64,000 nucleotides of DNA from Escherichia coli (GTDB taxonomy: Bacteria > Pseudomonadota > Gammaproteobacteria > Enterobacterales > Enterobacteriaceae). The translations under genes and the position numbers were made by a program. The stretch is taken from assembly GCF_009931435.1 (NCBI RefSeq), contig NZ_CP043414.1. One strand, written 5' to 3'. Positions 32,180 to 63,216 of the stretch are shown here, piece by piece. The notes under the pieces were generated by a model. It worked only from the letters and a program-made list of their open reading frames with translations, was not told the origin of the DNA and ran no database searches. The stretch's first letter is position 1. Each line of letters opens with the position of its first letter.

Positions 32180-35110
<2,931 letters not shown>

Positions 35111-35635
35111 TTGTCATCCCTCCTCAGGGACGTAATAAGTTGATCCATCAATTATCAATGCATAGAAAACATATTATGTTTCGCGTTTACGATTATGCGG
35201 CGTTATAGAGGAATGGTTCAATTATTCTTTCCCCTAAGTCCGATTGCGGACATATATAAAGCACGTGAACACACATAAAGAAATAAATAACAAAAATACA
35301 TTATTTCAATAGGTTAATGAAAGCGCCAATTTTAAAACATAGACCATAAAAATATAAAACAACCAAACCAGACAAATAATGTATCAATAAGCAATGAACT
35401 TTACGCCATTCACTTTTTGAAAACGTCACCAAATCCCCAAAAACAATAATCTATAGCTATAAATAAAAATTAAAAATATTTTCAATGAATATAAATTTAT
35501 TGCTATTTCTATTACAAAGATGTCCTGACCTCTCATTCATTCTCTTCTTGTCAACATCGCGACAACTTTCGTAAAACATCCCCACCCTGCTTCAGGTATA
35601 CTATGCCCCTCGATTCCACAAACATCAGGCAGACC

Positions 35636-36610
35636 ATGACAGACCTAATCCAACGCCCTCGTCGCCTGCGCAAATCTCCTGCGCTGCGCGCTATGTTTGA
35701 AGAGACAACACTTAGCCTTAACGACCTGGTGTTGCCGATCTTTGTTGAAGAAGAAATTGACGACTACAAAGCCGTTGAAGCCATGCCAGGCGTGATGCGC
35801 ATTCCAGAGAAACATCTGGCACGCGAAATTGAACGCATCGCCAACGCCGGTATTCGTTCCGTGATGACTTTCGGCATCTCTCACCATACCGATGAAACCG
35901 GCAGCGATGCCTGGCGGGAAGATGGACTGGTGGCGCGTATGTCGCGCATCTGCAAGCAGACCGTGCCAGAAATGATCGTCATGTCAGACACTTGTTTCTG
36001 TGAATACACATCTCACGGTCACTGCGGTGTGCTGTGCGAGCATGGCGTCGACAACGACGCGACTCTGGAAAATTTAGGCAAGCAAGCCGTGGTTGCAGCT
36101 GCTGCAGGCGCAGACTTCATCGCCCCTTCCGCCGCGATGGATGGCCAGGTACAAGCAATTCGCCAGGCGCTGGACGCTGCGGGCTTTAAAGATACGGCGA
36201 TTATGTCGTATTCGACCAAGTTCGCCTCCTCCTTTTATGGCCCGTTCCGTGAAGCGGCCGGAAGCGCATTAAAAGGCGACCGCAAAAGTTATCAGATGAA
36301 CCCAATGAACCGTCGCGAGGCGATTCGTGAGTCACTGCTGGATGAAGCCCAGGGCGCAGACTGCCTGATGGTTAAACCAGCCGGAGCTTACCTCGACATC
36401 GTGCGTGAGCTGCGTGAGCGTACTGAATTGCCGATTGGTGCGTATCAGGTGAGCGGTGAGTACGCGATGATTAAGTTCGCCGCGCTGGCGGGTGCTATAG
36501 ATGAAGAGAAAGTCGTGCTCGAAAGCTTAGGTTCGATTAAGCGTGCGGGTGCGGATCTGATTTTCAGCTACTTTGCGCTGGATTTGGCTGAGAAGAAGAT
36601 TCTGCGTTAA
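35636..36610 (+). CDS. hemB: Porphobilinogen synthase (delta-aminolevulinate dehydratase) HemB
   Basis: ATG at 35636 gives [28 protein letters not shown]... (324 aa); the track ORF starts 11 codons earlier at 35603. Confidence 0.95.
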
Positions 36611-36620
36611 TGATCATTAT

Positions 36621-36647
36621 GCCGGGTTATCCAACCCGGCATTTCCC
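36621..36647 (+). terminator. Hairpin between convergent hemB and tauD (probable bidirectional terminator)
   Basis: GCCGGGTTATCCAACCCGGC stem-loop followed by ATTTCCCCC; sits in the 39-bp gap between the two stops. Confidence 0.5.
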
Positions 36648-36649
36648 CC

Positions 36650-37501
36650 TTACCCCGCCCGATAAAACGGAATATCCCCAAGAATCGTCGCCCGATGCAT
36701 AATCCGCCGCTGTGGCAGGTAATCCGCATTGGCATAGTGCTGAGTCACGCGGTTATCCCAAATCGCAATATCATTCGGTTGCCAGCGCCAGCGCACCTGA
36801 AACTCCGGTTTAGTGATATGGGCAAACAAAAAACCTAACAAGGCTTCGCTCTCTTTATCGCTGACATCAACAATTCGTGTGGTAAAACCTTCGTTCACAA
36901 ACAGCGCCTGTTTACCGGTCACCGGATGCGTTCGCACAACCGGATGGAGCAACGGTGGATTTTTCGCGACCGCCTCGCGCCAGCGTTGATGCTCATCCTC
37001 GGTTTTGCGGTACTTGTATTCCGGGAACGATTTACGGAAATCATGCTCCGCACGTAGCCCGCTCAATAGTTGACGGAAGGGAGCTGAGAGCGCCTCATAG
37101 GCCGCAATACCGCTGCTCCAGAGCGTATCGCCGCCAGTCGAGGGTAACTCTTTCGCCGCCAGAATCGCCCCTGCGGGTGGCGTTTCAATAAATGTCACAT
37201 CGGTGTGCCAGTTATCGTTATCCGGCGGATTATCGTTATGAGTATCCAGTACGATGATCTCCTCAACCCCTTCGGCATGAGGGTAAACAGGATGAATATG
37301 CAGTTCGCCAAAACGCTGGGCCAGCGCGCGTTGCTGCTGCGGTGTAATGGCTTGATCGCGCAGAAACACCACCTGATGGCGCAGTACCGCATGGTAAAGC
37401 TGTTCAAACTGATTATCGCTTAACGGACGCGTCAGGTCGGCACCTGAAATTTGTGCACCGATATACGGCCCCAGCGGGGTAATGCTCAGACGTTCACTCA
37501 T
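36650..37501 (-). CDS. tauD: Taurine dioxygenase TauD (alpha-ketoglutarate dependent)
   Basis: 283 aa, [27 protein letters not shown]...; HxD...H iron ligands. Confidence 0.95.
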
Positions 37502-38325
37502 TGTACTTCTCCATGCCAGGGCGTCAGGCGGCGCTGTAACGCGCGCAGACCCAGTTCTAAAAGAAAGGCGATAATCGCAATCACCGCGATCCCCGCCAGC
37601 ACCACGTCAGTCGCGAGAAATTCACCCGCTGACTGAACCATAAATCCTAAACCGCGCGTTGCGGCAATCAGCTCCGCCGCCACCAGCGTTGACCAGCCCA
37701 CACCCAGACCAATGCGTAATCCGGTGAGGATTTCCGGCAGCGCGCCGGGCAAAATAACAAACCACAGCACCTGCGCACGGCTGGCCCCCAGCGACTGAGC
37801 GGCACGAATGCGAACCTGCTGCGCGCTTTTCACCCCCGCCAGCGCCGACATCGCCACCGGTGCAAAAATCGCTAAATAGATCAGTAAGATCTTCGAGGTT
37901 TCGCCAATACCAAACCAGATCACCATCAGCGGCAAATAAGCCAGCGGCGGCACCGGACGATAAAGCTCGATTATCGGATCCAGAATGCCGCGCACCGTCG
38001 GGCTTAGTCCCATGGCGATCCCAACCGGAATGCCGATCAACACCGCCGCAAGTAGCGCCAGCACAATGCGCGTCAGGCTGGCTGCCAGATGTTGCCACAG
38101 GGTGGCGTCCATAAATCCTTGAGGTCCGGCAATAGTGAGCAGTTTTGCCATTACCTGTTGCGGCGGCGGCAGAAACAGCGGGCTAATCAGTTGCAGCGCC
38201 GCCACCGCCCACCATACCGTGAGTAAAACCGCTAACGTGCCAATGCTTAAGGTCACCTGACGCGAGAGCGGCCAGCGCCATTTCAGCCGATGCGAATGCA
38301 GTTTTTCATTAATGAGCACACTCAT
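37498..38325 (-). CDS. tauC: Taurine ABC transporter permease TauC
   Basis: 275 aa membrane protein; 4-bp overlaps with tauD and tauB. Confidence 0.93.
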
Positions 38326-39089
38326 GAGAACGCCTCCCGTTGCTCAAATACGCGGCTTAAAACATATTCGCGCATGGCGATGAATTGTGGATCGGACTTG
38401 ATGCTGCGGCTCGGTTCCCCGGCAACAAAGCGGCGGGCGAAGTTGAGCGGCAGGCGTTCCAGCACGCGGCCTGGGCCGGGTGAAAGCAGAACCAGTTCAG
38501 TCGCCATAAACACCGCTTCTTCTATATCGTGGGTAATCAACAGCACCTGCTTGCCCGTCTCCTGCCAGAGTTTCAGCAGCAGGGTTTGCATCTGGTCGCG
38601 GGTGAAGGCGTCCAGCGCGCCAAACGGTTCGTCGAGTAATAACAGCTGGGGATTTGCCGCCAGCGCGCGGGCAATCCCTACCCGCTGACGTTGACCGCCG
38701 GAAAGCTGCCAGATATAGCGTTTTTCTGCGCCTTCCAGCCCCACTTTTTTCAGCATCTGGTGCGCGATTTCCAGGCGCTGTACTTTCTCTACACCTGCCA
38801 GTTGCAGGCCGAATGCCACGTTGTCTACCACATTACGCCACGGCAACAGCCCTTCATTCTGAAAAACCACGCCCCGCTCTGCGCCCGGTCCCTCAATGCA
38901 CTTACCCGCCAGTTGAATGCTGCCATGCTGATAAGGCACAAAACCGGCAATCAGATTCAGCAAGGTGGTTTTGCCGCAGCCAGACGGTCCCAGAACCACC
39001 AGAAGCTCGCCGCTTTCCAGCGTCAGGTTGATATCTTCCAACGCCGGTTTGCCGCCATAATCGGCGTAAAGATGAGAGATTTGCAGCAT
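38322..39089 (-). CDS. tauB: Taurine ABC transporter ATP-binding protein TauB
   Basis: 255 aa; Walker [10 protein letters not shown], signature [15 protein letters not shown], Walker B LLLLDEP. Confidence 0.95.
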
Positions 39090-39101
39090 CTGCGCCTCCT
39101 T

Positions 39102-40064
39102 TTATTGCACGAAGCGCGAGGTCACGTACTGGCTGTAATCATTCGCCACGGCAGGGACTTTGCCCTGATCTTTCAAAAACTGCGCGGTATCAATGATCGC
39201 TTTATTCACCGGTCCGGTCAGTTCTGCCGTTTGTTGCTGCGGCGTCAGATAGGTATTCCCCTTCACCAGCCCCGGAACGTCACCTTCCGGCACGGCGCTT
39301 AAACGCGCCAGCTTGCTGATGTTTTCCGGCTGTTTCAGCCACGCGTCTGGGTTAGCAATGTACGGTTGCTGAGCATCGATGGCGCTTTTAGCGAACGCTT
39401 TCACGACTTCAGGATGTTTCTCGGCAAAATCTTTGCGCACGACCCAGACGTCCAGTGTCGGCGCGCCCCACTGCCCGACCTGTTCAGAATCGGTCAGCAC
39501 CTTGCCATCTTTTTCCAGGGCGTTAACCGCCGGTGCCCAGACATAAGCACCATCAATATCTCCCCGCTGCCATGCGGCGATAATCGCGGGCGGCTGCAGG
39601 TTCACAATCTCAACTTGCCCAGGTTTAATACCCCAGTGTTTCAGCGCCGCCAGCAGGCTGTAGTGGGTGGTGGAGATAAACGGTACGGCGATGCGTTTAC
39701 CAATGAGATCTTCGGGTTTGCTGATGGTTTTCTTCACCACCAGCGCTTCGGAGTTACCCAGTTTTGACGCCAGCAAGAAGACTTCAATCGGCACCTGTTG
39801 GCTGGCTGCAACCGCTAATGGGCTGGAACCGAGGTTGCCGATTTGCACGTCGCCAGAAGCCAGTGCTCGCACGATGCTGGCTCCGCTGTCAAACTTGCGC
39901 CAGTCCACCGTCGCCCCGCTCTCTTTAGCAAAGGTGTTATCAGCCTGAGCCACTTTCGCCGGTTCAGCGGAGGTTTGATAGGCCACGGTGACGTTCACCG
40001 CCTGTGCCTGAAAAGCGATGAATGCCAGTGCGGCAAGAAGTGTGTTACGCGATGAAATTGCCAT
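39102..40064 (-). CDS. tauA: Taurine ABC transporter periplasmic binding protein TauA
   Basis: 320 aa with signal peptide MAISSRNTLLAALAFIAFQAQA. Confidence 0.93.
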   Translation of the reverse strand: MAISSRNTLLAALAFIAFQAQAVNVTVAYQTSAEPAKVAQADNTFAKESGATVDWRKFDSGASIVRALASGDVQIGNLGSSPLAVAASQQVPIEVFLLASKLGNSEALVVKKTISKPEDLIGKRIAVPFISTTHYSLLAALKHWGIKPGQVEIVNLQPPAIIAAWQRGDIDGAYVWAPAVNALEKDGKVLTDSEQVGQWGAPTLDVWVVRKDFAEKHPEVVKAFAKSAIDAQQPYIANPDAWLKQPENISKLARLSAVPEGDVPGLVKGNTYLTPQQQTAELTGPVNKAIIDTAQFLKDQGKVPAVANDYSQYVTSRFVQ

Positions 40065-40294
40065 GATTGTCTGCTCCCCTGTCTTGTTATGGGAGCAGTA
40101 TTTCGTTGCGGGTCAGTTTGATAAAGGAATTAAAACGTCTTGTTAAGAACAAAGCGTTTTTAGAAAAAAACTGGCAATGGTTAGCGAATATGCGCATTTT
40201 GCTATTTTTAACAAACATCGCCTGGTGCAGCGCTCACGCCTCTTATCATGCATACAAATACTGGGGCCGGATAAATTTTATGCTCCAATGCTAT

Positions 40295-40343
40295 ATACTA
40301 TAGGGGGGTATGCATTGACATATATCATACCCCCCTATAGTAT
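40295..40343. promoter_or_regulatory. frmRAB promoter with FrmR-type operator (G6/C6-tract inverted repeat)
   Basis: Perfect 17-bp inverted repeat ATACTATAGGGGGGTAT (40295-40311) / ATACCCCCCTATAGTAT (40327-40343) bracketing a TTGACA -35 hexamer (40315-40320), with TATAGT at 40336-40341; 27 bp upstream of frmR. G/C-tract plus AT-rich arms is the site architecture of the RcnR/FrmR (CsoR) family. Confidence 0.75.
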
Positions 40344-51580: not shown

Positions 51581-51770
51581 TTCAGTACCTCACGACTCGG
51601 ACAAAATGCCGTTGCGCGCACAGTTCTACGCAACTTATTTTGTTAAAAACATGTAAATGATTTTTTATTGTGCGCTCAGTATAGGAAGGGTGTTTTCGGC
51701 TACAATCAAAACATGCCTGAGTGTGCACCAAGTGCACAACGTTGTTTTAACTATAGAAATGTCAATTAAT
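51581..51770. promoter_or_regulatory. Divergent mhpR / mhpA promoter-operator region
   Basis: 190-bp spacer between divergent mhpA (-) and mhpR (+) starts; individual MhpR/CRP sites not resolved by eye. Confidence 0.5.
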
Positions 51771-52604
51771 ATGCAGAAAGATGAGCAGACGGAATACAAA
51801 ACCGTGCGCGGCTTAACCCGCGGTCTAATGTTATTAAATATGTTAAATAAACTCGATGGCGGTGCCAGCGTCGGGCTGCTGGCGGAGCTCAGCGGCCTGC
51901 ATCGCACCACTGTGCGGCGACTGCTGGAAACGCTGCAGGAAGAGGGATATGTCCGGCGCAGTACCTCCGATGACAGTTTTCGTCTGACCATCAAAGTGCG
52001 GCAATTAAGCGAAGGATTTCGTGACGAACAATGGATTTCTGCACTGGCAGCCCCGCTGCTGGGCGATCTGTTGCGCGAAGTGGTATGGCCGACAGATGTG
52101 TCCACGCTGGATGTTGATGCAATGGTGGTACGCGAAACCACCCACCGTTTCAGCCGTTTATCTTTTCACCGGGCAATGGTCGGACGGCGTTTACCGCTCC
52201 TGAAAACCGCCTCGGGCCTGACCTGGCTGGCCTTTTGCCCGGAACAAGAACGCAAGGAGTTAATCGAAATGTTAGCCGCCCGTCCCGGTGATGACTATCA
52301 GCTGGCACGGGAGCCGTTAAAGCTGGAAGCCATTCTGGCGCGCGCACGCAAAGAGGGTTACGGACAGAACTACCGTGGCTGGGATCAGGAAGAGAAGATC
52401 GCCTCCATTGCCGTGCCCCTACGCAGTGAACAACGGGTGATTGGCTGTCTGAATCTGGTGTATATGGCAAGCGCAATGACCATCGAACAGGCAGCGGAAA
52501 AGCATCTTCCGGCGCTACAACGGGTAGCAAAACAGATCGAAGAAGGGGTTGAATCGCAGGCTATTCTGGTGGCCGGACGGCGAAGCGGCGTGCATTTACG
52601 CTAG
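51771..52604 (+). CDS. mhpR: IclR-family transcriptional activator MhpR
   Basis: ATG at 51771 gives MQKDEQTEYKTVRGLTRGLMLLNMLNKLDGGASVGLLAELSGLHRTTVRRLLETL... (277 aa); the track ORF starts at 51657. Confidence 0.9.
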   Translation: MQKDEQTEYKTVRGLTRGLMLLNMLNKLDGGASVGLLAELSGLHRTTVRRLLETLQEEGYVRRSTSDDSFRLTIKVRQLSEGFRDEQWISALAAPLLGDLLREVVWPTDVSTLDVDAMVVRETTHRFSRLSFHRAMVGRRLPLLKTASGLTWLAFCPEQERKELIEMLAARPGDDYQLAREPLKLEAILARARKEGYGQNYRGWDQEEKIASIAVPLRSEQRVIGCLNLVYMASAMTIEQAAEKHLPALQRVAKQIEEGVESQAILVAGRRSGVHLR

Positions 52605-52718
52605 TTGCGCCAATGTGTAATTTGGCCCATTCTCATCGTTATTCGCCCATTTGCCCACATGCACAGTACGGGCTGCACGCTACGCTAATGCCATCAATAC
52701 TGTGATGTGGAGCAAATC

Positions 52719-53495
52719 ATGAAAATTACTCAAATTCGTAATGCCACCCAAATTATCCAATACGCTGGCAAAACATTTCTTATTGACCCGTTACTCGCGC
52801 CTAAAGGAAGTTATCCGGGTTTTGCCGGAACGGCACGCGCAGAAATCCGCAATCCAACGGTAGAATTACCGTGCGATTTAACAACGTTACTCAACGTTGA
52901 CGCCCTAATAGTGACCCATTTGCATGAAGATCACTGGGACGAAACAGCCTCCCGCGTCGTCCCCAAAGATAAACGGATTTATGTGCAAAATGAGCAAGAT
53001 GCTGAATCACTGCATAAACAAGGATTTACGCATCTTACCGTACTTGCCGACGAGACTAAATTTGGCGATATTACTCTGCATAAAACGACAGGGCAGCACG
53101 GCTCCGATCACACCTATGCAGACCCGGCTATGGCGAAGCGTTTAGGCGCAGCCTGCGGCGTTGTTTTCCAGCACCCGACAGAGAAAACGCTCTATCTGGC
53201 TGGCGATACCCTCTGGCGTGATGACGTCGAGGCTACAATGCTAACTTTCCAACCAGAAGTGGTGGTGTTGAATGCCGGATTTGCGCATGTTCTGGGGCAT
53301 GGCGCGATAATTATGGGAGCTGAAGATATTCTCAAAACACATTTTACCCTGCCAGAAGCGCAAATTGTCGCGACACATATGGAGGCCGTAAACCACTGTT
53401 TGCTGACGCGTGATGCGCTCAAGGAATACGCCAGAGATAATCAAATTATCGAATTTGTGAACGTACCAGAAGATGGTGAAACGTTGACATTCTAA
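52719..53495 (+). CDS. Metallo-beta-lactamase-fold hydrolase, uncharacterised (258 aa)
   Basis: ATG at 52719 preceded by GGAG; MKITQIRNATQIIQYAGKTFLIDPLL... with the MBL metal-binding signature THLHEDHWDE (HxHxDH) and downstream His/Asp residues. Not part of the K-12 mhpR-lacI junction as I recall it. Confidence 0.7.
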   Translation: MKITQIRNATQIIQYAGKTFLIDPLLAPKGSYPGFAGTARAEIRNPTVELPCDLTTLLNVDALIVTHLHEDHWDETASRVVPKDKRIYVQNEQDAESLHKQGFTHLTVLADETKFGDITLHKTTGQHGSDHTYADPAMAKRLGAACGVVFQHPTEKTLYLAGDTLWRDDVEATMLTFQPEVVVLNAGFAHVLGHGAIIMGAEDILKTHFTLPEAQIVATHMEAVNHCLLTRDALKEYARDNQIIEFVNVPEDGETLTF

Positions 53496-53514
53496 TTCGG
53501 AGATAAAGAGTGTT

Positions 53515-54468
53515 ATGCGCCCGCTAACTGTTGCCATTATCGCCGTTGCCGGTTTTAGTCCTTTTCACCTTTCCGTACCGTTTATCGTGTTTAGCGAAAA
53601 AATGGCGGAGAAAAAACGCTTTCATGTAATTATCTGCGCTGAAAAGCCGGGAAACGTGGACTCTGCCGATGGGTTTTCCGTAACCGCCACCCATGACTAT
53701 ACGGCAGTCATCCAGGCGGATATTGTGATAATTCCTTACTGGGGAACAATTACACAAAAACCGCCACAAAAACTGCTGGAAGCCTTAACGACCGCACGAG
53801 ATAACGGGGCACAGATTGTCGGGCTTTGCCTGGGCACGTTTGTGCTCGGCTATGCAGGTTTACTGAACAATAAGCGTGCTGCCACGCACTGGGAGTTCGA
53901 GCGTGAATTTCAGGCACGTTTTCCACAAACACATCTGGATATTAACGCGTTGTATGTAGACGATGATGGCATTATTACCTCTGCCGGTACTGCCGCGGCG
54001 CTGGATTGCTGTTTGTATATTGTTCGGCAACATTTTGGCAGCGACTATGCTAACCATATTGCCCGACGGATGGTCGTACCGCCATATCGCACCGGCGGTC
54101 AGGCGCAGTTTATAGAGCAACCGGTGCCGAAAAATACCCATGATGAACGCATTAACCTCCTGCTGGATTACCTGCGGCAAAACATTGCGCAACAGCATGA
54201 TCTCGACTCGCTGGCTCAGCGAGTAATGATGAGTCGCCGCACACTAACCCGTCATTTTATGAAAGCGACCGGTTCGAGTATCGCCGAATGGCTCATCACT
54301 GAACGCTTACGCCGTAGCCAGGAACTGTTGGGATCCAGTCAGTTGCCCGTTGAGCGGATAGCGGCTGAGGTGGGTTTTCTCTCACCTGTGACCTGGCGTC
54401 AGCATTTTAAATCTCACTTCGGCGTCAGCCCCGCAGAATGGCGCAAAACCTTTCGTGGTATGGCATGA
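53515..54468 (+). CDS. GlxA/GbdR-type transcriptional regulator (DJ-1/PfpI-like domain plus AraC-type HTH)
   Basis: 317 aa; N-terminal DJ-1/PfpI-like region (IVGLCLGTFVLGYAGLL), C-terminal AraC-type HTH (LDSLAQRVMMSRRTLTRHF...IAAEVGFLSPVTWRQHFKSHFGVSPAEWRK). Starts 19 bp after the MBL gene, same strand. Confidence 0.75.
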   Translation: MRPLTVAIIAVAGFSPFHLSVPFIVFSEKMAEKKRFHVIICAEKPGNVDSADGFSVTATHDYTAVIQADIVIIPYWGTITQKPPQKLLEALTTARDNGAQIVGLCLGTFVLGYAGLLNNKRAATHWEFEREFQARFPQTHLDINALYVDDDGIITSAGTAAALDCCLYIVRQHFGSDYANHIARRMVVPPYRTGGQAQFIEQPVPKNTHDERINLLLDYLRQNIAQQHDLDSLAQRVMMSRRTLTRHFMKATGSSIAEWLITERLRRSQELLGSSQLPVERIAAEVGFLSPVTWRQHFKSHFGVSPAEWRKTFRGMA

Positions 54469-54504
54469 TAGCGCCCGGAAGAAAGTCAATTCAGGGTGGT
54501 GAAT

Positions 54505-55587
54505 GTGAAACCAGTAACGCTATACGATGTCGCGGAGTATGCCGGTGTCTCTTATCAGACCGTTTCCCGCGTGGTGAATCAGGCCAGCCACGTTTCAGCG
54601 AAAACGCGGGAAAAAGTGGAAGCGGCGATGGCGGAGCTAAATTACATTCCCAACCGCGTAGCACAACAGTTAGCGGGCAAACAGTCGTTGCTGATTGGCG
54701 TTGCCACCTCCAGTCTGGCCCTGCACGCACCGTCGCAAATTGTCGCGGCGATTAAATCTCGCGCCGATCAACTGGGTGCCAGCGTGGTGGTGTCGATGGT
54801 AGAAAGAAGCGGTGTCGAAGCCTGTAAAGCGGCAGTACACAATCTTCTCGCGCAACGCGTAAGTGGTCTGATCATCAACTATCCGCTGGATGACCAGGAT
54901 GCCATTGCTGTGGAGGCAGCCTGCGCTAATGTTCCGGCGCTATTTCTTGATGTCTCTGACCAGACTCCCATCAACAGTATTATTTTTTCCCATGAAGACG
55001 GTACACGGCTGGGCGTAGAGCATTTGGTCGCATTGGGTCACCAGCAAATCGCGCTGTTAGCGGGCCCATTAAGTTCTGTCTCGGCGCGTCTGCGTCTGGC
55101 GGGCTGGCATAAATATCTTAAACACAATCAAATTCAACCGATAGCGGAACGGGAAGGCGACTGGAGCGCCATGTCCGGTTTTCATCAAACCATGCAGATG
55201 CTGAATGAGGGCATCATTCCTACTGCGATGCTGGTTGCCAACGATCAGATGGCGCTGGGTGCAATGCGCGCCATTACCGAGTTCGGGCTGCGCGTCGGCG
55301 CGGATATCTCGGTAGTGGGATACGACGATACCGAAGACAGCTCGTGTTATATCCCGCCATTAACGACCATCAAACAGGATTTTCGCCTGCTTGGGCAAAC
55401 CAGCGTGGACCGCTTGCTGCAACTCTCTCAGGGCCAGGCAGTGAAGGGCAATCAGCTGTTGCCCGTCTCACTGGTGAAACGAAAAACCACCCTGCCACCC
55501 AATACGCAAACCGCTTCTCCCCAGGCGTTGGCTGATTCCTTAATGCAGCTGGCGCGACAAATTTCCCGACTGGAAAGCGAGCAGTGA
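54505..55587 (+). CDS. lacI: Lactose operon repressor LacI
   Basis: GTG start at 54505 gives VKPVTLYDVAEYAGVSYQTVSRVVNQASHVSAKTREKVEAAMAELNYIPNRVAQQLAGK...; 360 aa. Confidence 0.95.
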   Translation: MKPVTLYDVAEYAGVSYQTVSRVVNQASHVSAKTREKVEAAMAELNYIPNRVAQQLAGKQSLLIGVATSSLALHAPSQIVAAIKSRADQLGASVVVSMVERSGVEACKAAVHNLLAQRVSGLIINYPLDDQDAIAVEAACANVPALFLDVSDQTPINSIIFSHEDGTRLGVEHLVALGHQQIALLAGPLSSVSARLRLAGWHKYLKHNQIQPIAEREGDWSAMSGFHQTMQMLNEGIIPTAMLVANDQMALGAMRAITEFGLRVGADISVVGYDDTEDSSCYIPPLTTIKQDFRLLGQTSVDRLLQLSQGQAVKGNQLLPVSLVKRKTTLPPNTQTASPQALADSLMQLARQISRLESEQ

Positions 55588-60868: not shown

Positions 60869-62023
60869 TCATGCCTCTTTGACCCACAGCTGCGGAAAAC
60901 GTGCTGGTGCAAAACGCAGGGTTATGATCATCAGCCCAACGACGCACAGCGCATGAAACGCCCAGTCCATCAGGTAATTGCCACTGATACTACGCAGCAC
61001 ACCAGAAAACCACGGAGCAAGCCCGGCAATGATAAAACCGATCCCCTGCATAAACGCCACCAGTTTGCCAGCAATAGCGGGTTGCGCAGAGTGATCGAGC
61101 GCCAGCAGCAAACAGAGCGGAAATGCGCCCCCCAGACCTAACCCACACACCATTGCCCACAATACCGGCAATTGCAGCGGCAGCCAGATAAAGCCGCAGA
61201 AACCCACCAGTTGTAACGCCAGTGCCAGCATTAATAGTTTGCGCCGATCCTGATGGCGAGCCATAGCAGGCATCAGCAATGCCCCTGCGGCTTGACCAAG
61301 CGTCATCAACGCCAGCAAGGAACCGCTGTACTGCGTGCTGGCACCGATCTCAATATAGAAGGCGGGTAACCAGGCAATCAGACTGGCGTAACCGCCGTTA
61401 ATCAGACCGAAGTAAATACCCAGCGTCCAGGCGCGGGGAGTGAAGACTACGCGAACCGGAGTGGTTGTTGTCTTGTGGGAAGAGACGACCTCGCGGCAGC
61501 TTTGCCACCACCAGGCAAAGAGCGCAATAATGGCAGGCAGCGCCCACCAGGCGAGAGTCTGGAACCAAATCTCGCTGTGTTGAACTAACCAGGGCGTCAG
61601 GGCGGCACCAAGTCCACCGCCGCCCATCAGAGCCGCAGACCACAGCCCCATCACCAGTGGCGTGCGCTGCTGAAACCGCCGTTTAATCACCGAAGGCATC
61701 ACCGCCTGAATGATGCCGATCCCCACTCCACCGAGCAGTGCGCTGCTAAGCAGCAGCACACTTTGAGGGTAAAGCTCTCGCATCAATGCGCCGACGGCTA
61801 TCAGCAACAAACTGATGGCGACGCTGCGACGTTCGCTGACATGCTGATGAAGCCAGCTTCCGACCAGCGCCAGCCCGCCCATGGTGACCACCGGCAGAGC
61901 CGTCAACAGGGCAGCCACGCTAAAGCTCATTCCGCTCGCCTGGCGCAATTGCGGTAGCAGTGGCCCGACGGAGGTGAGCAGTGGTCGCATATTAAGACCA
62001 ATCAGCACCAGAACCAGCAGCAT
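60869..62023 (-). CDS. cynX: Cyanate transporter CynX (MFS)
   Basis: ATG at 62023 gives MLLVLVLIGLNMRPLLTSVGPLLPQLRQASGMS... (384 aa); the track ORF extends to 62050. Confidence 0.9.
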   Translation of the reverse strand: MLLVLVLIGLNMRPLLTSVGPLLPQLRQASGMSFSVAALLTALPVVTMGGLALVGSWLHQHVSERRSVAISLLLIAVGALMRELYPQSVLLLSSALLGGVGIGIIQAVMPSVIKRRFQQRTPLVMGLWSAALMGGGGLGAALTPWLVQHSEIWFQTLAWWALPAIIALFAWWWQSCREVVSSHKTTTTPVRVVFTPRAWTLGIYFGLINGGYASLIAWLPAFYIEIGASTQYSGSLLALMTLGQAAGALLMPAMARHQDRRKLLMLALALQLVGFCGFIWLPLQLPVLWAMVCGLGLGGAFPLCLLLALDHSAQPAIAGKLVAFMQGIGFIIAGLAPWFSGVLRSISGNYLMDWAFHALCVVGLMIITLRFAPARFPQLWVKEA

Positions 62024-62055
62024 CGTGAACGTCTTTTGATGGTCGCGCATGGCTG

Positions 62056-62544
<489 letters not shown>

Positions 62545-62556
62545 TTAAAAATAAGG

Positions 62557-63216
62557 TTACGCTGCGGTCGGCTGGCGTAGCGGTATGGCACAAACGCAAG
62601 GATTAGCTGCCAGTGGCACAAACTGGCGGGTTACGCCGTCAAAGGCTGCGATACTGCCGCTTTCAATGTCGTAGACCCAGCCGTGCAGGGCGATCCGCCC
62701 CTCTTCGAGCGCCAGGCGCACCGATGGATGAGTTTGCAAATTAGCCAACTGAGCAATGACGTTTTCACGTACCATCGCCGCAGCTTTTGACGCTAAATCG
62801 GAATGCGGGCGCGCCTCATTAACGACGCGAGCTGAATCGGCATAACGCAGCCAGTGGGAAACAGCAGGCATATGGTCCATGCACTGACAGCTGGCAATGG
62901 CAGTCATCGCGCCACAGTTGGAATGACCGCAAATCACAATGTCAGATACCCGAAGCGCAGCGACGGCATACTCCACCGAAGCAGAAACGCCACCAGGTTC
63001 CGGTCCGTAGGAAGGGACGATATTGCCTGCGTTGCGAATCACGAACAGATCGCCAGGTTCGCGTTGCGTCACCAGCTCAGGGACCAGACGGCTGTCGGAG
63101 CAGGAGATAAAAAGTGTGCGCGGGCTTTGCTTTGTCGCCAGCTGTTTAAACAAGGCTTCCCGCTCAGGAAATGCCTCGCGCTGGAATTTAAGGAATCCAT
63201 CAATAATCTCTTTCAC
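62557..63216 (-). CDS. cynT: Beta-class carbonic anhydrase CynT
   Basis: 219 aa, [49 protein letters not shown]... (CxDxR and HxxCG zinc-ligand motifs). Confidence 0.93.

Follow-up and report, generated by a model that had tools for sequence, protein, structure and literature searches.

The DNA analysed here is a 64,000-nucleotide stretch of Escherichia coli (contig NZ_CP043414.1 of RefSeq assembly GCF_009931435.1), called the window below, and our subject is a cassette of two genes lying between mhpR and lacI. The first gene encodes a hydrolase of the metallo-beta-lactamase (MBL) fold and the second an AraC-type regulator. The cassette is a locus already known, O-island 19 (OI-19), with the genes z0443 and ovrA (z0442). 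From comparison with related loci in other genera, we consider it probable that the cassette is an isothiocyanate detoxification module of the SaxA/SaxC type, which was ancestral to E. coli and Citrobacter and has since been deleted in most E. coli lineages, with OvrA as the cognate regulator. The genes and the boundaries of the locus are as follows.

51771-52604: mhpR, left flank of the cassette.
52605-54435, plus strand: segment missing from K-12, equal to O-island 19, 1831 bp (junction alignments of the window, K-12, and Sakai).
52719-53495, plus strand: hydrolase open reading frame (ORF), orthologue of z0443, 258 amino acids, with an ATG start at 52719 and an alternative GTG start at 52707.
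53515-54468, plus strand: ovrA, orthologue of z0442, the regulator ORF, 317 amino acids.
54505-55587: lacI, right flank of the cassette.

The O-island 19 of enterohaemorrhagic E. coli (EHEC) O157:H7 EDL933 is 1834 bp long and contains two ORFs, z0442 (ovrA, an AraC-type regulator) and z0443, the latter being of unknown function (PMC10877973, PMC8565820). The gene order in O157 Sakai, lacZ-lacI-ECs_0399-ECs_0400-mhpR, matches that of the window, where the regulator is identical to ECs_0399 in 316 of 317 residues (99.7%) and the hydrolase to ECs_0400 in 253 of 258 residues (98%). Some recent RefSeq annotations, found by a megablast search of 5,426 complete E. coli genomes, give the regulator gene the label “ovrA: OI-19-encoded virulence regulator OvrA”. 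The original prediction, made from the sequence of the window alone, had called the pair uncharacterised, subject to no functional description being found; one exists for the regulator, which is the published OvrA, and the label holds for z0443, which is listed as unknown in EHEC reviews. The junction given there for K-12, with both genes absent and fewer than 100 bp between mhpR and lacI, is correct: the spacing in K-12 MG1655 is 76 bp, and the counterpart of 52605-54435 is a mere 7 nucleotides (CACCATC) after the mhpR stop. K-12-type genomes have 667 bp across the region for which the window has 2491 bp.

The two co-oriented ORFs, described from the start as lying 19 bp apart, are present with this gap, and a generic scan indicates no terminator-like site between them. 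The ATG at 52719 is the start used by RefSeq in a genome 99.9% identical to the window, and a GGAG motif is located just upstream at 52709-52712. Compared with the Sakai alleles, ovrA shows 22 synonymous codon differences and 1 non-synonymous one, and the hydrolase gene shows 11 and 5, respectively, a mark of purifying selection. Together with the homologues of the cassette genes, which number in the thousands, this indicates that the genes are real and not chance ORFs. Scanning 52300-54800 against Rfam (E <= 1) yielded no match. The longest ORF for mhpR starts at 51657 (315 amino acids, 51657-52604), against 277 amino acids from 51771 in RefSeq and K-12; the longer form probably merely reflects an upstream in-frame ATG.

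The hydrolase carries the MBL signature THLHEDHWDE noted in the original prediction and matches the Pfam domain Lactamase_B_2 (1.9e-10). The best match of the PDB sequence search is the isothiocyanate hydrolase SaxA from Delia radicum gut bacteria (PDB ID 6BRM), which aligns over the full length (E 2.7e-87), followed by an unassigned Veillonella homologue (PDB ID 3RPC, E 2.4e-72); the next match reaches 18.9 bits, and no match outside the SaxA family has an E below 0.007. When ten sequences are aligned, the hydrolase is 54% identical to 6BRM, and the metal ligands H67, H69, D71, and H72 of the HxHxDH motif, as well as H127, D163, and H220, are invariant, with both 6BRM and 3RPC included. The AlphaFold structure (predicted local distance difference test score, pLDDT, 94.2) superposes with 6BRM at a template modelling (TM) score of 0.98 and a root mean square deviation of 1.0 Å. 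The best folds outside the family belong to NAPE-PLD, Igni18, and UlaG-like proteins, with TM scores of at most 0.77 and identities of at most 20%, and an arylsulfatase appears first at rank 33 (TM 0.59). The lactonases, glyoxalase II, and alkylsulfatases that had been proposed for a structural comparison are thus far more distant relatives, and the PDB sequence and fold rankings led us to reject a reading as beta-lactamase, N-acyl homoserine lactone lactonase, glyoxalase II, or alkylsulfatase.

Isothiocyanates are the mustard-oil compounds of crucifer plants. SaxA is described to convert an isothiocyanate to the amine and carbonyl sulfide (PMC7303113, PMC7036374). The saxA gene is widespread in Enterobacterales, where it forms five clusters, the catalytic properties being kept in all five, and two interchangeable functional SaxA proteins of Pectobacterium share just 44.9% identity with each other (PMC7036374). 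As z0443 is 54% identical to the crystallised enzyme, it falls inside the functional range of the family. The comparison strongly supports a role for z0443 as a predicted cytoplasmic di-metal MBL-fold isothiocyanate hydrolase of the SaxA family, with the reaction R-N=C=S + H2O -> R-NH2 + COS. The substrate, left open-ended in the original prediction, is narrowed accordingly by the family membership. The window hydrolase has no signal peptide, as is the case for 6BRM, and since the E. coli, Citrobacter, and Pectobacterium (L042; L numbers denote the loci compared) proteins share this feature, the enteric SaxA-type enzymes are predicted to be cytoplasmic. A Pseudomonas orientalis SaxA homologue (L073, 5896-6777, 293 amino acids) carries an N-terminal extension resembling a signal peptide.

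The gene neighbourhood was compared for 84 hydrolase loci, where an OvrA-like gene was counted if more than 200 residues aligned and it lay within 300 bp of the hydrolase gene. Such a gene is present at 65 of the 84 loci, which supports the earlier proposal of an enzyme paired with a cognate small-molecule-responsive regulator. The regulator is downstream and co-oriented at 55 of the 84, covering the Enterobacterales including Pectobacterium (about 57% identity to OvrA); the order of enzyme and then regulator had been taken as less usual but is the conserved enterobacterial arrangement. In Pseudomonas, Stutzerimonas, Massilia, and others, the regulator lies upstream, is mostly divergent, and is 44 to 46% identical to OvrA. 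A bacterial scan with one genome per species returned at least 597 hydrolase relatives; among the best 80 of these, the closest are from Citrobacter (77 to 80%), and no representative of another Escherichia species occurs. Citrobacter rodentium has the order hydrolase, DJ-1/AraC regulator, lacI, lacZ, and lacY, identical to that of the window, and Yersinia has the same pair in an unrelated genomic context.

The Pseudomonas sax cluster has been described as saxCAB, where saxC encodes a transcriptional regulator, and the saxA and saxC locus tags of P. viridiflava are adjacent. By this analogy of position and homology, OvrA would be the cognate SaxC-type regulator of the hydrolase. A paralogous module is carried by the IncY plasmid pTET-GZEC065 (L093, 5001-7192), with a hydrolase 63% and a regulator 58% identical to the chromosomal proteins, two operator-like repeats upstream, and a third gene annotated as “ester cyclase”. 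The plasmid module is found on 367 plasmids, 128 of them from Escherichia and the others from Salmonella, Cronobacter, Providencia, Pantoea, and further genera.

The domain architecture of OvrA given in the original prediction, a DJ-1/PfpI-like domain followed by an AraC-type helix-turn-helix (HTH), is recovered by Pfam with DJ-1_PfpI at residues 6-171 (7e-12), HTH_18 at residues 233-311, and HTH_AraC twice (3e-19 for the HTH). The best NCBIfam model is FtrA with 324 bits, below the cut-off of 425, and the GbdR model scores 126 bits, below the cut-off of 480. These scores rule out an equivalog identity with GbdR or FtrA, so that the quaternary-amine chemistry suggested earlier for a GbdR-type regulator is not indicated. 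The nearest solved relative of the N-terminal domain is isocyanide hydratase, a member of the DJ-1 family (E 7e-13). The nucleophile-elbow cysteine, Cys105 in the motif GLCLG, is found in 65 of 65 distinct regulators encoded beside SaxA homologues. Isothiocyanates are thiol-reactive electrophiles, which makes sensing through this residue attractive, although electrophile sensing by Cys105 of OvrA is speculative.

Upstream of the hydrolase gene, two further elements are predicted.

52622-52664, plus strand: operator-like element TTGGCCCATTCTCATCGTTATTCGCCCATTTGCCCACATGCAC, about 43 bp, a predicted OvrA/SaxC-type binding site reaching the -35 region (cross-genus alignment).
52680-52686, plus strand: predicted -10 element CTACGCT, with the hexamer TACGCT at 52681-52686 preceded by C (placed by spacing).

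The first element contains a direct repeat, TTGGCCCATT and TTCGCCCATT, with a distance of 20 bp. It is kept upstream of the hydrolase gene in E. coli, Pectobacterium, Pseudomonas, Massilia, and Pseudaminobacter, where the flanking sequences are unrelated, and the intergenic form in Pseudomonas, Massilia, Advenella, and Pseudaminobacter is TGGCCCGAT-N3-ATCG-N5-TGTCATTCAGGCCACTGT. We built a weight matrix from ten non-enterobacterial sites alone and scanned both strands of the loci, each about 12.7 kb long. For 58 of 74 other loci, the best match within the locus falls 0 to 250 bp before the hydrolase gene and on its strand, and the best match in the 64-kb window is exactly 52622-52664. The motif is missing in all seven adequately flanked loci that have no adjacent regulator (L045, L078, L079, L081, L082, L084, and L088).

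The 3' box of the element (CCCACAT or GCCACTG) is followed, at 20 nucleotides, by a -10-like hexamer, which is TACGCT in E. coli, TACGAT in Citrobacter, and TATACT in Pectobacterium. A generic scan of 52500-54600 for sigma-70 promoters and terminators detected no plus-strand promoter and nothing above shuffle expectation, and the promoter proposal therefore rests on the cross-genus conservation. A C before the -10 hexamer is a feature of sigma-S-like promoters, and its presence here fits the reported RpoS dependence of Z0443. Such a layout is usual where the site of an AraC-type activator borders the -35 region, suggesting that OvrA may bind there and activate transcription.

These comparisons also bear on the possibility that the SaxA-family hydrolase has a different physiological substrate in enteric bacteria, such as another heterocumulene, an electrophile, or an endogenous metabolite, to which the regulator responds. 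The SaxA family is common in bacteria not associated with plants, for which its authors propose “additional purposes” (PMC7036374). Z0443 is transcribed in EDL933 with a strong, 10-fold RpoS dependence in plain rich medium, where isothiocyanate is absent (PMC2907692). The similarity of the OvrA sensor domain to isocyanide hydratase and the “ester cyclase” gene linked to the plasmid module point in the same direction. However, isothiocyanate hydrolysis is the only activity demonstrated in the family and is reported for all five clusters (PMC7036374), the predicted fold and the metal ligands are essentially identical to those of the crystallised enzyme, and dietary isothiocyanates are plausibly met by the gut E. 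coli of cattle and humans. We therefore regard a different substrate as unlikely and prefer isothiocyanate detoxification as the function of the module.

Of the 5,426 complete E. coli genomes, exactly 435 (8%) contain the cassette interior, always as a single, chromosomal, and full-length copy. An evenly spaced sample of 60 genomes contains 49 with the K-12-type junction, all with the 667-bp span, and 5 with a Nissle-type junction. Both types of junction retain a part of ovrA.

54436-54469, plus strand: 3' end of ovrA kept in K-12, encoding EWRKTFRGMA and the stop (alignment of K-12, Nissle, Sakai, the window, and C. rodentium).

K-12 retains GAATGGCGCAAAACCTTTCGCGGTATGGCATGA, which represents the last 11 codons of ovrA including the stop (33 bp, window 54436-54468). 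The deletion in Nissle 1917 (L004, 6001-6099) is a different and larger one that takes in the complete mhp operon and the hydrolase gene together with most of ovrA; yaiL is joined to a 98-99-bp fragment of the ovrA 3' end, which is annotated by the Prokaryotic Genome Annotation Pipeline as a truncated GlxA-family pseudogene. The retained codons include R310 and F313, which are at least 97% conserved in distant homologues. C. rodentium has a homologous junction between the ovrA 3' end and lacI. The remnants in K-12 and Nissle, together with this junction, indicate that the cassette was present in the E. coli ancestor and has been deleted at least twice. At the K-12 junction, compared with window 52602-52614, there are 10 nucleotides, TGACACCATC, that cannot be matched clearly to the sequence on either flank of the island; they supply the TGA stop of K-12 mhpR, where the window has TAG, and microhomology at the junction is limited to a weak CGT match.

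The original prediction had left open whether the cassette is a strain-variable insertion or an ancestral state lost in K-12, and of these the ancestral state is borne out. If the cassette were instead a true island that the EHEC lineage acquired recently by horizontal transfer, at an mhpR-lacI junction like that of K-12, this would agree with the G+C content of the hydrolase gene (0.477, compared with 0.55 to 0.56 in the flanks) and with the lack of other Escherichia species among the best 80 of the at least 597 hydrolase relatives. The nucleotide divergence between the window and Sakai is also lower in the island (2.1 to 2.4%) than in mhpR (4.1%) and lacI (5.1%), which hints at recombination or exchange of the segment between lineages and could mean a later transfer. 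An insertion, however, cannot create the stretches of the ovrA frame left in K-12 (33 bp) and in Nissle (about 98 bp), with their R310 and F313 codons, the ovrA-lacI junction is homologous in C. rodentium, and neither mobility genes nor flanking repeats are present at the cassette, making this explanation highly improbable.

The retained 3' end may have a function of its own. The classic lacI promoter presumably falls within the final 28 bp of ovrA, with the -35 hexamer GCGCAA at 54441-54446 and the -10 hexamer CATGAT at 54464-54469, the latter overlapping the ovrA stop; the lacIq mutation changes the -35 from GCGCAA to GTGCAA. With the hexamers placed in this way, the lacI promoter of K-12 looks like a remnant of the 3' end of ovrA, and this would account for its survival in two independent deletions.

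The published function of OvrA is the activation of LEE1/ler in the locus of enterocyte effacement (LEE), based on deletion, electrophoretic mobility shift assay (EMSA), chromatin immunoprecipitation with quantitative PCR (ChIP-qPCR), and footprinting (Liu et al. 2020, J Infect Dis 221:820, reviewed in PMC8565820 and PMC10877973). These reviews give GACATTTAATGATAATG in the LEE1 promoter as the OvrA binding site and credit the regulator with promoting adherence and the colonisation of mice. In Sakai (L090), the published 17-mer is located 201 to 185 nucleotides before the annotated ler start, within TTTTTGTTGACATTTAATGATAATGTATTTTACACATTAG, overlapping a TTGACA hexamer and the adjoining spacer. 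The LEE1 motif does not occur near the cassette, and the sole match in the window, with 3 mismatches, is inside lacZ; as 18 of 100 shuffles also match, it is a chance match.

O-island 19 could accordingly be a virulence islet supplying OvrA for LEE1/ler, with z0443 as an unrelated passenger. The summarised deletion, EMSA, ChIP-qPCR, footprinting, and mouse data agree with this, as does a z0443 deletion without a virulence phenotype (PMC8565820, PMC10877973), and the majority of the 435 carriers belong to the LEE-positive lineages O157:H7, O55:H7, and O145:H28. However, the pair and its upstream element occur in dozens of genera without the LEE, for example Enterobacter, Klebsiella, Yersinia, Pectobacterium, and Pseudomonas, so that a LEE-specific role cannot explain the pair. 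The K-12 and Nissle remnants are also a sign of loss and not of a pathogen-specific gain, and the LEE activation may well be true yet secondary. We consider a virulence islet with a passenger gene quite unlikely to account for the locus and favour a detoxification module with its own regulator.

The mechanism proposed for such a module is as follows. The z0443 enzyme would detoxify mustard-oil compounds derived from crucifers in the diet or feed. OvrA would bind the direct-repeat operator at 52622-52664 as a dimer and, from there, activate the z0443-ovrA transcript at the promoter with the -10 hexamer TACGCT, resulting in autoregulation. As the gap between ovrA and lacI is 36 bp long and holds no terminator, this transcript may read through into lacI in the carriers. 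More speculatively, the DJ-1-like domain would sense the electrophile, for example by a reversible thiol adduct on Cys105. The ancestral target of OvrA would thus be its own z0443-ovrA operon, and the activation of LEE1 in EHEC would be secondary, a function for which a regulator of detoxification was co-opted. It is possible, albeit doubtful, that OvrA responds to isothiocyanates or other electrophiles and that, in LEE-positive E. coli and possibly in C. rodentium, dietary isothiocyanates have thereby become coupled to type III secretion and colonisation, perhaps also to LacI levels via read-through.

Several observations weigh against the proposed module and its regulation. The roles of the E. 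coli proteins in catalysis, binding, and induction rest on comparison, and the SaxA authors note that the family may serve other purposes in non-plant bacteria (PMC7036374). The sole phenotype reported for a z0443 deletion is an absence of effect on adherence and LEE expression (PMC8565820). In P. viridiflava under isothiocyanate, saxA is raised by about 1.4-fold (log2 fold change 0.5 to 0.6) and saxC is uninduced. The likeness of OvrA to SaxC is drawn from other Pseudomonas loci and the P. viridiflava locus tags, not from the P. syringae SaxC sequence, and Cys105 may be a general trait of the wider regulator family. The operator match in the window scores 7.1, a value that shuffled sequence also attains (mean maximum 6.2), and its support is positional (roughly 250 of 128,000 placements), besides a near-identity to the Citrobacter and Enterobacter sites; furthermore, the motif is present at two loci where no adjacent regulator was detected (L028 and L038). 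Finally, the LEE1 site GACATTTAATGATAATG is rich in A and T, in contrast to the GC-rich predicted operator, and the two are unrelated; a second matrix, built from 12 enterobacterial operator sites and used on the LEE, peaks at -6.1 over the 700 bp that precede ler and at 2.4 over the entire 45-kb locus. OvrA either has two binding modes or makes a contact at LEE1 of a different kind or of lower specificity.

The O-island 19 locus and the virulence regulator OvrA are already known, and EHEC reviews up to 2024 present z0443 as unknown and OvrA purely as a LEE activator. The searchable literature yielded no link between OI-19 or z0443 and isothiocyanates, although van den Bosch et al. 2018 may include enteric representatives, and within the same scope the assignment of z0443 as SaxA-type, OvrA as its cognate regulator, the predicted operator, and the presumed lacI promoter in the ovrA 3' end are apparently new. 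If the proposal is true, mustard-oil compounds from brassica feed and vegetables would be candidate signals of OvrA for EHEC researchers, and the native promoter would serve as a benchmark for the DNA binding of OvrA. It would also explain the occurrence of a “virulence regulator” in many non-pathogens, and it bears on the use of allyl isothiocyanate against O157 in food safety and on the bacterial breakdown of sulforaphane in the gut.

The wider surroundings of the cassette contain two further gene groups. The interval between tauA and frmR (window about 32500-40300) encodes a response regulator, a MASE1 histidine kinase, a UhpC-like transporter, and an ATP-binding cassette (ABC) transporter, a set that resembles the O157 O-island 20. 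C. rodentium (L006, 1-4981) has a similar set, comprising a major facilitator superfamily transporter and an ABC transporter, immediately in front of the cassette, which suggests a wider synteny common to both species that is broken in E. coli by frmRAB-yaiL-mhp. About 6 kb downstream of the cassette, the window contains the cyanate operon with cynX, cynS, and cynT (60869-63216), the last encoding the carbonic anhydrase CynT. Carbonyl sulfide, the predicted by-product of the hydrolase, is a substrate of carbonic anhydrase, and cyanate is a heterocumulene related to isothiocyanate; the proximity of the cyn operon to the cassette is probably a coincidence.

In comparison with known systems, the cassette shares its position between mhpR and lacI, its two genes, and their order with the O-island 19 of EDL933 and Sakai, but the window is from another lineage: its nucleotide sequence is 97.5 to 97.8% identical to that of O157, whereas for an isolate from human faeces in Viet Nam the identity is 99.9%. 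The hydrolase resembles the SaxA proteins represented by 6BRM and those of Pectobacterium and Pseudomonas syringae in its full-length homology, the HxHxDH motif with the His/Asp/His ligands, and a near-identical predicted fold. It differs in being from a gut commensal or pathogen and known from sequence and model, whereas the others are from plant-associated bacteria, and the Pseudomonas SaxA homologues examined have an N-terminal signal peptide unlike the E. coli protein.

The combination of a DJ-1/GATase1-like sensor with an AraC HTH is common to OvrA and the AraC regulators of the GlxA/FtrA/GbdR/CdhR type, but OvrA belongs to a distinct subfamily defined by the adjacency to a SaxA gene and by its own predicted operator. 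Isocyanide hydratase InhA, as the closest solved structure to the sensor domain, has the same nucleophile-elbow cysteine but is an enzyme without the DNA-binding domain found in OvrA. A parallel in gene organisation is the Pseudomonas sax cluster, where a regulator gene also lies beside the isothiocyanate hydrolase gene; in the Pseudomonas loci compared, the neighbour is an OvrA homologue with the same intergenic operator motif. In contrast to that cluster, in which the two genes are divergent, those of E. coli are co-directional, and the cassette carries neither saxB nor efflux genes.

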